A stretch of DNA of 64,000 bases from Candidatus Poribacteria bacterium (GTDB lineage Bacteria; Poribacteria; WGA-4E; WGA-3G). Position 1 is the first letter of the stretch, and the number at the start of each line of letters is the position of its first letter. The DNA lies in contig OZ244048.1 in the NCBI GenBank assembly GCA_965215265.1, forward strand, positions 2,912,001-2,976,000. The letters run 5' to 3'. Below are positions 36,147 to 47,568 of the stretch, piece by piece. Both the position numbers and the translations under genes were made by a program. The notes beneath the pieces are model-generated. The model was not told where the DNA came from, did not search any database, and saw nothing but the letters and a program-made list of their open reading frames with translations.

Positions 36147-37079
36147 TCAATTCGGTGTGTTGAAGATGGCGCGGTTGACTCGCATGATTATTTTTCTCCA
36201 GGGTTGTTTCGGCTGTTGATTTTTATCGGTTTCCGACATCTCCAGGGTTGTGGTTTGTGGAAACCAGATCTCGGGTTCAAACTGTTCAAGTTGGTATGTA
36301 TACCGGGTTAATGACCTTCGTTCTTCCGTGTGCCTTTCTTGATGAAGACCGCGTGTCATTAAGATGCTCTGCATTTCTTTCCGATATACCAATATGCGCG
36401 TCGGAAGAAAACTCTTGCATGGATCTCGGTACATTTCAATAGTCCGGGTATTGTCTGAATCGGTGCGGCACAATGTGAGGGCATAGACGGTTTGCTCTTT
36501 TTCGTTGATCTTTTCAACTGTAATGGGTGTAAAGATACGAAAATTCGTGTAGAGGTTTATCCAGTGCATCGGATTGAAAAGGTCATCTAATCGATGCGAA
36601 GGCATTGTCGGTTGCTCTTTCCACTCGGTGCCGATTTTCTCCCAGACATGCACTGTTTTCCCTGTTCTCAGATAGTGGTGATGGGTTTCTTTCCAGTTTG
36701 AAAGCGGAGGCCCGTAGAGTTCCATCTTATAACGGGCTTTCACGTCGTAAAATTGGTGTTCTGCGTCAAATTGATAGGTAATCTCCCACCGCCCTTTTTC
36801 TTCATAAGTGTCTTTACGTCGGGCTGCAGTCGGTATCCGCCTGGGTCCACTGAGGATGAGCGTGAAGTCAATCACGCCGCTTTTGAGTTTTGCCTTGTAA
36901 ATTTGAATACCCACTTTTACCGCTTCGAGCAATTGCGTTGCTTCTGCGGAGAGTTCAACGTTTTCAGGTGTTTTCGGTGTCTGTGGCACTGCAGGTGTGT
37001 CAAACAATAAAGACAGACAGAAGCAGGAAACGGAAAAGAAAAGTGAGAAACGACATTCCAAAATCTGTGTAATCCGCAT
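36147..37079 (-). CDS. Secreted protein, predicted LolA/LolB-like beta fold
   Basis: Signal peptide; LKSGVIDF at the N-terminus and EPEIWFP...IMRVNRAIFN at the C-terminus parallel the neighbouring gene. Confidence 0.65.
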   Translation of the reverse strand: MRITQILECRFSLFFSVSCFCLSLLFDTPAVPQTPKTPENVELSAEATQLLEAVKVGIQIYKAKLKSGVIDFTLILSGPRRIPTAARRKDTYEEKGRWEITYQFDAEHQFYDVKARYKMELYGPPLSNWKETHHHYLRTGKTVHVWEKIGTEWKEQPTMPSHRLDDLFNPMHWINLYTNFRIFTPITVEKINEKEQTVYALTLCRTDSDNTRTIEMYRDPCKSFLPTRILVYRKEMQSILMTRGLHQERHTEERRSLTRYTYQLEQFEPEIWFPQTTTLEMSETDKNQQPKQPWRKIIMRVNRAIFNTPN

Positions 37080-37090
37080 CGGATGTCCTC

Positions 37091-38251
37091 CTACTCAACT
37101 TTAAAGGATTCATGGGTTCGCGTGTCAAAAATAGTAGCCCCGGAGGGTGGTTCTAGGGCAAAACGGCGAGCCGAAATCGGTTCGTTAATCCGCACGTTTG
37201 TAAGGTGCATCGTAGTTGTCTCCAGAGAGGTTTCAGCACCGGTTTCAAGATTCACAAGCGATGTCACGGATTGGGCGGATTGTGGGAACCAGAGGTCAGG
37301 GGCGACTTCCACGAAATCAAAGTCTTTTATCACTTGGTGCCGCTGTTCGGGGCCTTCAGTAGAAAACATAAAGCGTTCAGGACGGTAACTTTTCTGTGGG
37401 TTAAGCCAGAGTTCAACTTCTACGGCTTCTTGCACAGTCCCTTTGATGTGATAAACGGAGGCGTTGTCCCAATTGACAGACTGTATCTGTTCGACATTGA
37501 TAGCATCGATAAGTTCTGCAAAGGGACTACCATCGCTGAGGTTCCATCCCCAGAAACGTGGGTCGTATGCTGTGTTATACCTGATGTCGCTGCCGCGTGT
37601 TAAGACTGTGCCGTTCGGCGTTTCGCGAAGTTCTTCAAAAGTCTCGCCATCATAAGCGAAGTGTTTTGTGTCAAAAACGTGTAGACTTCCGTGCTGCTCA
37701 TTATACTCAGTCGCGTTTTGTGTCACGCTGCCGGTGACTCGGTTTCCAGAAAACGCAAAGGTTCCTTCCCAAGTGCCCTTGGGGGCCTGTAACATGCTGT
37801 CTTCTAGAATAGGGTGACTTGATATCTCCATGAAAAAGTCTACGCTCCCGCTTTCGACGAGGCTATCGTAATAGGAGACACCTTCGCGGACGAGTTGAAA
37901 CATTTCGCCTTGCGTGAGTTCAGTGGAACTGTCTGCGGTTTCATCCTCGGTGAGAATACTGTTTCCCGAGAGGTTTTGTTCTTCCAATGTTGAGAGGAAG
38001 TCGATTGCTTCTGTCACAACGGCAAAATCTGGTGTCGTGTTCTCTATTTGTGTTGTTTCTTCAGCTGTAGTGGCGAGTTCCGTCACGGCTGGCACATCAG
38101 ATAAATGGGCAGATGCAGTCGTTTTTATCACTGTAACAGTTGAGTGAACATCCCGATAAGTTGTATACCAATAGATGATTAAGGCACTCATAAGAACAAT
38201 TGCAATGATTGCTAGTGCCCATGCTTTGGTGTGTCGCGTTTTTTCTCTCAT
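37091..38251 (-). CDS. Membrane-anchored protein, predicted LolA-like C-domain
   Basis: N-terminal TM, acidic linker, AYDG...DPRFWG...LWLNPQKSYRP...APDLWFP...VRINEPI. Confidence 0.7.
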   Translation of the reverse strand: MREKTRHTKAWALAIIAIVLMSALIIYWYTTYRDVHSTVTVIKTTASAHLSDVPAVTELATTAEETTQIENTTPDFAVVTEAIDFLSTLEEQNLSGNSILTEDETADSSTELTQGEMFQLVREGVSYYDSLVESGSVDFFMEISSHPILEDSMLQAPKGTWEGTFAFSGNRVTGSVTQNATEYNEQHGSLHVFDTKHFAYDGETFEELRETPNGTVLTRGSDIRYNTAYDPRFWGWNLSDGSPFAELIDAINVEQIQSVNWDNASVYHIKGTVQEAVEVELWLNPQKSYRPERFMFSTEGPEQRHQVIKDFDFVEVAPDLWFPQSAQSVTSLVNLETGAETSLETTTMHLTNVRINEPISARRFALEPPSGATIFDTRTHESFKVE

Positions 38252-38390
38252 GGTGAGGTGATCCTTTTGTTTGGGGTGACGCGTATTAAAACGCGTCACC
38301 GTTGGTTTTTCCGGGCGTTCCGGAAAGAATCATGAGGCAACCTGCCCCTCGTCGTTTATGAGTATAGCGAGGCCGTTGTCTTCATGACGA

Positions 38391-38822
38391 CTAACATGAG
38401 CTCTGCGTCTCTATCGTATAAACCCCATTTGTCCATATTCTAGTGATATATGAAGTTCGGAACCACGATATACAGTAGGGACCCACATAATCATACTGCT
38501 CTGCACATTGTTGGTTGTTTTCAGTAGTTGTAATGCAATCTGTGGATGAACTGTTTGTTCCACAAACAGCGTGGCCCCCACCCGATCGTTTGGAAGAGAT
38601 CCATCCGGAGCCGCTCCAAGACGTTTCGCAGTCTGAGGAGGCACAGACACCAGATGTGGGATAAACCTGCGCGTAGGTTTCGCACGGCCCCGCTCCCCGT
38701 GTTGCAAGCATTTCTGCTTGACTGAGGGTTTGGAAGGGAGCGTCGGGGTGAAAATTCACCTCCAATAGAGTGAGTCCTGCAATGAGCATGAGGAAGAGTA
38801 TCGGAAAAACTGTTGATTTCAT
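38391..38822 (-). CDS. Precursor: Sec signal + double-glycine-type leader + 99-aa 8-Cys core
   Basis: RBS AGGAG; LSQAEMLATRGA|G fits LSxxELxxxxG(G/A); adjacent to a C39 peptidase. Confidence 0.8.
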   Translation of the reverse strand: MKSTVFPILFLMLIAGLTLLEVNFHPDAPFQTLSQAEMLATRGAGPCETYAQVYPTSGVCASSDCETSWSGSGWISSKRSGGGHAVCGTNSSSTDCITTTENNQQCAEQYDYVGPYCISWFRTSYITRIWTNGVYTIETQSSC

Positions 38823-46453: not shown

Positions 46454-46532
46454 AAGTTTCTAATCCTTTAAATCTATAGATTTGAAAATCCGCCGCCGGG
46501 GGTGAGGTCTGGCGCGGTATCTATCAGGGGTT

Positions 46533-47464
46533 TTATTCTTTCTTTTTCGGTAACAACCCCTGAATCTCAAAGCTGAATTTGATTGTATCCGTCTCAAGCG
46601 AGCCTTGTTTTTCAAGCAATTTGCTGATGTTCCGAAGTCTTTTTAAACCCTTTTCGAGGTTTTGAAGCTGATCTTTATGCTTTTCTGGATCTCCATGATT
46701 GAGGATCTGAGTTTGTAATTCCATCAGGGCGATAAGCTCGGGATAGGAGACACGTTTTTTAGCTGAGAAGGCTAGCACGGTGTCAACCAATTCTTCGATG
46801 CGCGGATGATTGTTAAACTCGGCTGCCATGAGTGGGAGGAGTTTTGCGCGGGCTGCTGCTGGATCGGTCTCGAAAAGTGTTTTTAAATCGGATTCAGAGT
46901 TCTGAGCGTGCGATTCATCGGTGCTTGCTTTGCGATCTTCTCCTCGGGAAGAATCGCCCGTCTTTGGCTCAGACGTGTGGTTAGGTTCGTGGCCATGGCT
47001 GTGGTTTTGGTATGATTTTTCCATGGCACCATACTTTTGATATGCTTCTTGGAGACGCTGCATCTCGAAAGGATACTTCTGAGCGTCTCCTGTTTCCATC
47101 ATTCGGGGGGTAAGCATCCGGATTTCCAATTCCGCCAGGCGTTTTACATCCGAGGGGTGTTGCGTGCCTTCGCTGCAAATTCGGAAGTAGAGCGGGACCC
47201 ATTCGTCTACGAGGGGGTGTTCTCCGAATAGTTTTTTCGCGACGTTTTGGAGTTCCGTGCGTGCAGCCTTTTGGTTCGTCTTGAGTCGTTCCTTAAACGT
47301 TGCAAGCGAATCTGCCCAAAGTGCATCGCTAATTGCTTCCAGGGGGGGGCGTGAGAATGAGGCGAAGATACTTTTTCTTTTGCATCCGCTATATAACAAA
47401 AGGGCAGAAAAAATAAATTGTAAAATAGGATCCATCCCAAGAGTCGAAAATTCAAAAATATCAT
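46533..47464 (-). CDS. Secreted His-rich helical-repeat protein ('FGEHP' motif), frameshifted at a C8 tract
   Basis: RBS AAGGA + ATG47464 with signal ..IADA|KE; joins the main ORF (LEAISD...) only with C9 at 47342-47349; two internal repeats. Confidence 0.7.
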
Positions 47465-47503
47465 GATTCTATCCTTGTTGTGTGTGCGTGTGCTTGTCGA
47501 TTG

Positions 47504-47568
47504 AAATCTGAAAATTGCCATTTTGAAATCGAAGTCTTTATAATTATACATCCTAAATCAGGTTTTGT
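47504..47568 (-). promoter_or_regulatory. Conserved promoter/operator block, copy 3, heading the 47.5-36.1 kb operon
   Basis: Reverse complement acaaaacctgatttaggatgtataattataaa...gatttcaaaatggcaattttcagattt matches 3298-3362. Confidence 0.65.

Follow-up and report, generated by a model that had tools for sequence, protein, structure and literature searches.

The textbook place of C39 peptidases is in the cytoplasm, as parts of bacteriocin exporters. To our knowledge, FapD of the Pseudomonas Fap system is the single studied case of a C39 peptidase in the periplasm. In the LapG/LapD system, a periplasmic cysteine protease frees the LapA adhesin, which is cut near its N-terminal retention part at a pair of small residues. 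The present analysis concerns an array of eleven genes in a 64,000-nucleotide stretch of DNA from a Candidatus Poribacteria bacterium (assembly GCA_965215265.1, contig OZ244048.1, positions 2,912,001 to 2,976,000; the window), in which a predicted secreted C39 protein (g8) is encoded next to a Cys-rich candidate precursor (g9). The window genome, G000, is a single contig of 4.83 Mb and is 95% complete. The genes are named g1 to g11 in order of transcription on the minus strand. An earlier note on this DNA had read all eleven as one dedicated export and maturation pathway.

The array is a composite of three modules and not one conserved operon: module X (g1-g2-g3), module T (an ATP-binding cassette (ABC) exporter, g4, and a MacB-type permease, g5) and module Y (g6-g11). 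What stands of the proposed pathway is a C39-centred system with a Cys-rich precursor and LolA-fold proteins; its extent had been drawn too wide, g1-g5 lying outside. The explanation that we prefer, with a confidence slightly better than even, is that the conserved unit comprises g7-g11 together with, in relatives, an intact g6 and a PMT_2-type glycosyltransferase, and that periplasmic C39 cleavage releases g9. Judging from the sequences, the secreted protease probably clips a membrane-tethered Cys-rich protein free outside the cytoplasm. The core would represent a so far uncharacterised form of C39 processing guided by a leader, one that has shifted to the periplasm and become linked with LolA-fold and thiol-redox partners.

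FapD is a Sec-exported, periplasmic and catalytically active C39 protease that acts outside a peptidase-containing ABC transporter (PCAT), and the excerpted text of its report describes the target as still unclear, without canonical sites (PMC5557850). According to the same excerpt, C39 domains cut at GG and sometimes at GA (PMC5557850). The g8 protein is likewise predicted to be a Sec-exported C39 protease outside a PCAT. It differs from FapD in that a candidate substrate with a leader in the canonical register adjoins its gene, and in that it has extra CxC Ig-like domains and LolA-like partners. Pfam scans of the eleven products, in which no Fap family was looked for by name, gave no FapF-type barrel or amyloid-repeat family.

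With the PCATs (e.g. 7n87), g8 shares the protease family and the conserved Cys/His/Asp triad, and the leader of g9, the candidate substrate, likewise ends in Gly-Gly/Gly-Ala, is conserved at hydrophobic and acidic residues before that pair and precedes a cargo that varies more. In contrast to the PCATs, g8 has a Sec signal peptide, no ABC domains and a DUF1573/Ig-like fusion, and g4, the exporter of the array, lacks a C39 domain. Furthermore, g9 is anchored ahead of its leader and is an eight-Cys protein of ~98 aa, the cleavage of which would come after export, not before. The likeness to LapG/LapD is one of concept, namely the periplasmic release of a tethered extracytoplasmic protein: LapG is of another protease family and acts on a giant adhesin of a type I secretion system, held in an outer-membrane channel under cyclic di-GMP control, none of which is seen here.

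A secreted C39 protein next to an obvious candidate substrate would make the targets of periplasmic C39 peptidases testable with two genes. The g8 family is large and reaches genomes of very different composition, the exchange of Cys and selenocysteine in its DUF1573 loop and its thiol-redox neighbours hint at an unrecognised route of oxidative folding, and the cargo could matter for the surface biology of sponge symbionts.

The C39-DUF1573 protein and its candidate precursor

The features of g8 and g9 are as follows.

38908-40344, minus strand: g8, 478 aa, with signal peptide, C39 peptidase, DUF1573 Ig-like domain and a further region of ~210 aa
g8 residues 1-20, minus strand: signal peptide, ending in …PVAYA and followed by QT
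g8 residues 20-167, 39844-40287, minus strand: C39 domain (Peptidase_C39, PF03412, 47.3 bits, cut-off 22)
40261-40263, minus strand: codon of the g8 catalytic Cys28, from the alignment of 24 homologues
g8 residues 182-264, 39553-39801, minus strand: DUF1573 domain (PF07610, 43.8 bits, cut-off 26.1)
39694-39702, minus strand: g8 CxC motif, Cys215/Cys217, within an invariant N-C-N-C-T
38391-38822, minus strand: g9, 143 aa from MKSTVF; the open reading frame (ORF) is open back to a GTG at 38885
g9 residues 4-20, minus strand: membrane anchor, with two residues ahead of it
g9 residues 33-45, 38688-38726, minus strand: double-glycine-type leader LSQAEMLATRGA, followed by G after the putative cut (G-A-G motif)

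Both Pfam domains of g8 score above their cut-offs behind a signal-like N-terminal segment, which bears out the secreted C39-DUF1573 protein of the earlier note. The narrower DUF1573 model NF041425 gave 38.1 bits, under its cut-off of 100. Among 24 homologues of 52-74% identity, Cys28, His118, Cys215 and Cys217 are invariant and Asp134 is kept in at least 90%. At E 5.5e-4, the g8-family profile finds the solved C39 domain 7n87_A, whose active-site position aligns with the Cys.

The stretch of g9 after the anchor, LSQAEMLATRGAG, leads into an acidic domain of 98 residues, whose eight Cys residues are kept in ten relatives. With its G-A-G motif and eight Cys, g9 is the Cys-rich double-Gly-type precursor that had been claimed. 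Anchor and leader have mean identities of 44% and 43%, and the mature part one of 24%. The combination of an anchor, a leader and at least five Cys, used as a search pattern, has g9 as its sole match in the 4.83-Mb genome. A protein-atlas search with g9 gave no usable match.

The classical double-glycine leader has the register L-12, S-11, E-8, L-7, G-2 and G-1. Five lineages share one register in their g9-type leaders: L at position -12, S/T/N at -11, E/Q/T at -8, M/L at -7, G/A at -2 and G/A/T at -1. The leaders in other loci, with the residue after the putative cut site, are:

L020: LNASQMQTMYGG, then I
L022: LTDTTLAQRVGG, then P
L019: LSDSQMEQLSGT, then S
L070: LTIKEMKNIWAG, then Q

A gene with the precursor pattern adjoins the g8 relative in L019, L020, L022, L023, L024, L038 and L039, and that of L025 was recognised by alignment.

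The presence of the precursor was compared with the state of the C39 active site in 25 sources. The catalytic Cys is found in ten, eight of which have a leader-bearing precursor; as for the other two, L040 ends at a contig edge and none was found in L026. Ser replaces Cys in 14, and no leader-bearing precursor occurs in any of them. In the remaining source (L038), the N-terminus of C39 is missing and the precursor is present. The Ser cases represent two separate events, namely the 13 loci of a group called clade B, and L042, which has HASGA; the neighbouring Cys-rich protein of L042 keeps its anchor, and its leader is gone. The direction of this co-loss, as far as such comparisons tell, is as expected for an enzyme-substrate pair.

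A search with g8 alone against the genome contigs gave nothing, and the g8-family alignment (A1) led to 22 loci, all from Poribacteria records. Matches to g8 at E ≤ 1e-30 occur in 41 of the 176 genomes of the phylum, including 39 of the 111 in the window's family. A profile search of 1.84 billion representatives matched 6438 proteins at E ≤ 1e-3, of which 974 remained at E ≤ 1e-10 and 36 at E ≤ 1e-30. Among the 974, many have only the DUF1573 part in common with g8. Full-length proteins of ~460-500 aa are frequent among the matches, and some matches are ~800 aa long with the g8-like part C-terminal. The CxC of DUF1573 is the most conserved feature across the distant relatives (alignment A6); C206 is invariant, and some of these proteins lack the catalytic Cys. 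Some 18 genomes of the phylum have open frames of ~480-550 aa that match the C39 part alone, among which L021 alone was inspected.

It should be mentioned that the predicted complex of g8 residues 21-172 with g9 residues 20-143 scored 0.30 against a mark of 0.32 and was not used as evidence either way. In the literature, nothing was found joining DUF1573 with C39, Poribacteria with "peptidase C39", or LolA-like with C39, and no paper that mentions DUF1573 was about it by title or abstract.

LolA-fold proteins and thiol-redox partners

The other genes of module Y are listed here.

37091-38299, minus strand: g10, 402 aa (probable start M17, 38251), with membrane anchor, acidic linker and LolA-superfamily domain
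36147-37079, minus strand: g11, 310 aa, with signal peptide and LolA-like domain; paralogue of g10 (BLASTP E 3e-5)
40952-42127, minus strand: g6, 5'-truncated UshA-like protein (NF041198) with cytochrome c554 part and four CxxCH motifs
40372-40968, minus strand: g7, 198 aa, with signal/anchor segment, helical linker, small beta domain and invariant NxFRPLGY motif

Residues 100-402 of g10 were modelled with 34 family sequences by AF2, at a predicted local distance difference test score (pLDDT) of 86.7 and a predicted template modelling score of 0.80. Foldseek placed the model with LolA3 of P. gingivalis (E 2e-8) and with DUF1329, E. coli LolA, LolB and LprG (prob 1.0); in total there were 64 matches at E ≤ 1e-3. 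Sequence models gave sub-threshold hints of LolA/DUF2092, LolA reaching 16 bits against a cut-off of 112. The two LolA-like proteins of the earlier note are thus upheld, g10 by the fold of its model and g11 by homology to g10. Some of the 232 homologues of g10 are fused to a LamG domain.

LolA-like domains are also found fused to the C39 protein itself. Proteins of ~800 aa combine LolA_like, C39 and DUF1573, with Pfam LolA_like scores of 39.1 bits in P0208 and 30.0 bits in L009 (cut-off 30); L011 has a further long-form fusion with LolA_like (24.5 bits) and DUF2092, and in L021 a C39 domain with Ser is fused to a g11-like domain. An alignment of the g10 family against the N-terminus of P0187 by hhalign gave a probability of 5.9%, so that P0187 is not shown to be LolA-like.

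The LolA-superfamily fold of g10 and g11, together with the adjacent MacB/LolC-type permease, is reminiscent of the LolCDE-LolA-LolB pathway. However, g10 is membrane-anchored, has a long acidic linker and lies far below the LolA cut-off, as described above. For the permease, no fused or adjacent ATPase partner is found, and its synteny with the LolA-like genes is not kept among relatives.

The UshA-like/tetraheme cytochrome of the earlier note is found in g6 in part: NF041198 is matched and four CxxCH motifs are present, but the gene is 5'-truncated and its 260.9 bits lie below the cut-off of 275. The match begins at profile position 86, and the PCG(C/U) motif of UshA-like proteins is absent from window g6, which has no N-terminal motif. 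The relatives of g6 reach 458-482 aa and have both a signal peptide and the motif EPCGC. The g6-like orthologue of L019 passes NF041198 (311 bits against 275) and has EPCGC. These relatives align to the window only from residue ~92, exactly where g5 ends, and their N-termini have no match anywhere else in the window.

For g7, the GspC-like assignment stays a lead only. The AF2 model is weak (pLDDT 62.8). Foldseek paired it with the PilP chains 3jc8_Pa, 2ivw and 2y4y at prob 0.96-1.0 and E 0.05-0.12, with no match at E ≤ 1e-3, and Pfam had no match for it. The protein-atlas leads were GspN/GspC/PilP-like, with scores of 0.85-0.90. There is no secretin gene within the cluster.

The set of UshA-like protein, precursor, LolA-like protein and C39-DUF1573 protein recurs in a second Poribacteria family (L019, L020). 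More distant versions are found in L069-L071, metagenome loci of 27.5-28.9% G+C that were fetched with the AT-rich representative P0258; their placement outside Poribacteria rests solely on this G+C content and on identity of at most 27%. The gene order there is a precursor with a transmembrane segment and LTIKEMKNIWAG followed by QC (13 Cys), a LolA-like gene and C39-DUF1573. The LolA-like protein matches the g10 family (hhalign prob 96.7, E 3e-10) and PF17131 (E 1.4e-4). After C39-DUF1573 comes a protein whose N-terminus is thioredoxin-like with CPHC and whose C-terminus is multi-pass; its family matches are weak. L069 adds a second precursor (…FLKGYGG, then PC) and two more LolA-like genes.

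Clade B, a ~48%-identity group of g8 relatives, comprises 13 loci (L027-L037, L041, L043). In these loci, the g8 relative is followed by one to four LamG and LolA-like fusion proteins. The DUF1573 loop reads N-T-TGA-H-T in 12 of the 13 (e.g. L029:10628-10690); L027 has GGA instead. The loop is followed, 24-62 nt downstream, by a conserved hairpin with one compensatory pair only, and selB scored above cut-off in all five genomes tested. From these sequence features, clade B looks like a selenoprotein form of the g8 family. DUF1573/OS_HP2 (UxC) and UshA-like (CxU) are both among the selenoprotein families listed in excerpts of three reports (PMC2398784, PMC13188914, PMC1976440).

The redox loop and the CPHC protein of the low-GC loci point to cysteine chemistry on the eight-Cys cargo, as far as sequence motifs can indicate it. 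The Mia40-Erv1-cytochrome c relay is a conceptual analogy: there, the CPC of Mia40 acts on small Cys-rich clients and electrons pass to a c-type haem, which resembles the predicted pairing of the DUF1573 CxC with the UshA-like CGC/tetraheme protein. There is no homology between the two.

This evidence might be taken to mean that the system is mainly a periplasmic thiol/selenol redox module for sulfur, selenium or metal handling, with C39 as a binding module and g9 as a redox or metal-binding client. It would fit with the CxC being better conserved than the C39 Cys in distant relatives, and with clade B, which retains the DUF1573 domain with a putative selenocysteine but has Ser in place of the protease Cys and lacks g9. 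The selenoprotein membership of both families and the thioredoxin-like CPHC protein described above, as well as the resemblance of g6 relatives to SoxB (E 2e-16), are in its favour. Yet the catalytic triad is invariant in the 24 clade-A homologues (with Asp134 as given above), the leader register is kept across lineages and gone where the Cys is lost, and the redox partner g6 is truncated in the window with g8-g11 intact. We consider this view unlikely.

The preferred explanation, release of g9 by C39, builds on what the analysis shows, namely the genes present, their folds, the catalytic residues, the leader register, synteny and fusions; the topology, cleavage, redox role, carrier role and export route in the following scheme are inferred from these. 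The Sec machinery would insert g9, and the N-terminal hydrophobic segment would tether it to the inner membrane. Sec-exported g8 would recognise the leader LSxxEMLxTxG(A/G) after the anchor, and its C39 domain (Cys28/His118/Asp134) would cut after Gly-Ala/Gly-Gly, freeing the eight-Cys domain of ~98 residues. The DUF1573 CxC loop of g8 probably handles the cargo cysteines; its putative partners are the CGC and tetraheme UshA-like g6 in Poribacteria, or the CPHC thioredoxin-like membrane protein in the low-GC relatives. The LolA-fold proteins g10 and g11 seem to be obligate partners, as carrier, chaperone or docking module, and g7 may connect the system to an outer-membrane secretin. Because g8 and g9 both carry N-terminal Sec-type hydrophobic segments, Sec rather than an ABC exporter appears to be the simplest export route. 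Such segments are present in g2, g3 and g7-g11 and absent in g6.

A wider form of this scheme would be a widespread Sec-dependent "periplasmic double-glycine" system of Poribacteria and unrelated low-GC bacteria, combining C39 release, oxidative folding by CxC or selenocysteine loops, re-oxidation by a partner, PMT_2 glycosylation and ferrying by LolA-fold proteins. It is offered tentatively, as a rather unlikely generalisation.

The cleavage could also serve regulated proteolysis, in which g8 would release g9 as a tethered signal or anti-sigma-like factor and the LolA-like proteins would be RseB-like envelope sensors. LolA-fold sensors such as RseB exist, genes for ECF sigma factors or sigma-54 activators were seen by eye near the module in L029, L032, L039, L042, L019 and L020, and the g6-like gene of L020 is preceded by a good sigma-54 site, with the near-consensus -24/-12 sequence TGGCACAAGAATTGCT. 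However, g9 is almost without a cytoplasmic part (two residues) and so cannot hold a sigma factor, its eight-Cys scaffold is conserved like a folded extracytoplasmic domain, and a sigma-54 site was present in one of eight upstream regions of g6-like genes. This makes regulated proteolysis highly improbable.

Among 13 intergenic or upstream regions searched with the pattern TGG-N9/10-(T/C)GC(A/T), L020 gave one good site and L022 one poor site, and the idea of a sigma-54 promoter was dropped. A gene resembling sigma-54-type activators (GETGVGKE…, by eye) precedes the g6-like gene at L019:15067-16077, L020:372-1382 and L042:258-1238.

Composition of the array and its state in this genome

The genes of modules X and T and the repeat upstream of them are given below.

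46533-47435, minus strand: g1, 300 aa, without a family; module X begins with it
45713-46453, minus strand: g2, 246 aa, with N-terminal membrane segment and acidic linker, no family
45299-45709, minus strand: g3, 136 aa, with N-terminal membrane segment and GCGCC motif
43380-45128, minus strand: g4, 582-aa ABC exporter half-transporter (ABC_membrane, ABC_tran), no C39 domain
42093-43379, minus strand: g5, 428-aa permease, MacB_PCD (144.6 bits) and FtsX (70.9 bits) in Pfam
47498-47651, no strand assigned: dispersed intergenic repeat of ~150 bp upstream of g1, from the promoter scan and whole-genome blastn

The eleven co-oriented ORFs span 36147-47435 on the minus strand, with spacing from a 35-nt overlap to 170 nt, and the tight layout is as the earlier note had stated. 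In the Pfam and NCBIfam searches, g1, g2, g3, g7, g9 and g11 had no family above cut-off. When the 22 loci with a g8 relative were searched with all eleven proteins, adjacency to the g8 relative was found for g10-like genes in 19, g7 in seven, and g6 and g9 in five each. Neither g5 nor g3 occurred in any of the 22, and g4 (on the opposite strand) and g1/g2 occurred in one, L022. Thus the gene-neighbourhood comparison that had been suggested confirms a recurring g6-g11 core, but not the synteny of the whole eleven-gene set. Modules X and Y adjoin again in L022.

The domain assignments of g4 and g5 as an ABC exporter and a MacB-type permease were correct. The best NCBIfam model for g4 is MsbA, with 416.6 bits under its cut-off of 602, and a paralogue of 64.5% identity lies at window positions 5767-7488. 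The permease lacks an ATPase domain, and no MacB/LolD-type ATPase is fused or adjacent to it; the sole ATPase domain nearby belongs to the type-I exporter g4. The genome has 15 MacB-type matches to g5 at E ≤ 1e-40. A pair of exporter and ATPase-less MacB-type permease occurs three times in the window, at 5680-8936 (plus strand), 27049-32075 (minus strand) and 42093-45128 (minus strand), and the first two pairs sit beside unrelated genes. Two ORFs (27049-27564 and 27459-28379) make up the split middle permease, and they come after two exporter genes. The five closest orthologues of g5 (72-83% identity) have no other cluster gene within ~9 kb.

These data bear on the model of the earlier note, in which all eleven genes form one pathway: the exporter and permease move the cargo, C39 clips it and the LolA-like proteins receive it. 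The co-oriented, closely spaced genes behind one sigma70-like site are what such a model predicts, L022 has a 69%-identical g4 on the opposite strand and g1/g2 orthologues beside its C39 genes and is the closest long relative, and handover from MacB/LolCDE-type permeases to LolA is established biology, as titles of Protein Data Bank entries also indicate. On the other hand, the near-absence of g3-g5 from g8 loci, the recurrence of the exporter-permease pair elsewhere, the isolated g5 orthologues and the absence of a fused or adjacent cognate ATPase all speak against a route from ABC exporter through MacB permease to LolA. In addition, g8 and g9 have Sec-type N-termini of their own, and the end of g5 abuts the truncated g6, as a rearrangement would give. 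The single-pathway model is therefore very unlikely. The exporter and permease are probably bystanders, a pair that recurs on its own and here adjoins the truncated g6.

The "FGDxP family" proposed for g1 and g2 is unshown, because the two proteins have no mutual BLASTP similarity at E ≤ 0.01. Homologues of g3 occur in 20 of the 176 genomes of the phylum. A paralogous g1-g2-g3 triad lies at G000:C1:2300818-2303004 without ABC or C39 genes. A survey centred on g3 covered 22 loci from 17 genomes, corresponding to 23 of 27 listed places; G080 and G163 were left out, and the two of G000 were treated separately. Among these loci, g2 adjoins g3 in 13 and a PMT_2-type glycosyltransferase follows g3 in 13, and none of the 22 contained g8-g11. 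In other genomes, too, g1 is located beside g2 and g3.

A PMT_2-type glycosyltransferase is also located 3' of the last LolA-like gene in five clade-A loci and two fusion-type loci. Its positions there include:

L023:5790-7481
L024:8920-10581
L038:3770-5395
L039:4787-6490
L042:6866-8545
L007:2658-4113

Since both modules share this neighbour, a looser functional link between the g1-g3 triad and the C39 core is possible. PMT_2 is a GT-C, protein-mannosyltransferase-like family, and a glycosylation step for Ser/Thr-rich cargo might be considered.

Two ideas about g3 were rejected. A TGA in the g3 paralogue (G000:2302642) was not taken as a selenocysteine codon, as it sits at a Trp position of the membrane segment and not in the Cys motif. 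The possibility that g3 supplies the CGC motif absent from g6 was given up because g3 belongs to its own module; a by-eye comparison with the N-termini of g6 relatives showed no likeness.

The C39 system is eroded in this genome: g6 is truncated, the glycosyltransferase is fragmented, and a g6/g7 deletion is found in some populations. G000 keeps just three fragments of the PMT_2-type gene, at G000:C1:2039979-2040651. In contigs of runs X6 and X7, which come from two studies and make up two of the four runs, 747 bp (40691-41437) are deleted and 40690 is joined to 41438, so that g6 is left without its four heme motifs and g7 without its first ~93 codons. The X5 contigs have the undeleted region, with 0-1 differences per contig, and a contig of X7 spans the g5/g6 junction. 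No conclusion is drawn from gaps in coverage, as the X7 contigs miss 45508-47175 and X9 has many empty bins. Since g6 is truncated and the g6/g7 deletion occurs in X6 and X7, the redox partner and g7 seem to be dispensable or decaying here.

It might be asked whether the whole cluster is a decaying remnant without current function in this genome. The loss of ~90 N-terminal residues of g6 including the signal peptide, the fragmented glycosyltransferase that five relatives keep 3' of the module, the 747-bp deletion, the YhgA-like transposase and repeats flanking the region, and a genome of the same genus without g8 would all agree with this. Against it, the frames of g7-g11 are open over their full length and retain every conserved residue, and the X5 contigs are undeleted and nearly free of differences. 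Decay of the entire cluster is therefore quite improbable.

Several points weigh against the release of g9 by C39 as the function of the core. The genome of the same genus, G001, lacks g8. The window g6 has neither signal peptide nor CGC, and the X6 and X7 contigs have lost its heme region and the start of g7. The g4 orthologue beside the cluster in L022 keeps a link to an ABC exporter conceivable. No leader-peptide hidden Markov model of Pfam or NCBIfam matched g9 at E ≤ 0.1, and its likeness to the canonical double-glycine leader depends partly on what we take to be the consensus. The co-loss of catalytic Cys and leader comprises two independent events only, and the kin within them are not independent. 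Finally, proteolysis may not be the core activity of the family, because clade B and the C39(Ser) fusions exist without a thiol protease and without g9.

Concerning the "conserved promoter block" upstream of g1, a sigma70-like site, TTAACA-17-TATAAT, was indeed found by the promoter scan at 47571 to 47543 on the minus strand, inside the block 47498-47651. The block itself is a dispersed repeat, because there are at least ten further copies in the genome, in both orientations and with 79-98% identity; two of them lie in the window at ~3288-3368 and ~14801-14890. Promoter-like sites were not enriched relative to shuffled sequences (11 against 13.9 expected), nor were terminator-like sites (17 against 13.2 expected). 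The ~150-bp repeat with its near-consensus sigma70-type promoter may be a mobile or shared promoter cassette.

Downstream of g11, positions 35959-36077 contain short REP-like repeats with dozens of copies in the genome, and a terminator-like hairpin is found at 35984-35999 in the same intergenic stretch. A YhgA-like (Transposase_31) gene lies ~2 kb beyond g11, at 32881-34002 on the minus strand. A similar YhgA-like gene is located in genome G018 at L021:7644-8741, directly upstream of the gene for the C39(Ser)-LolA-like fusion.

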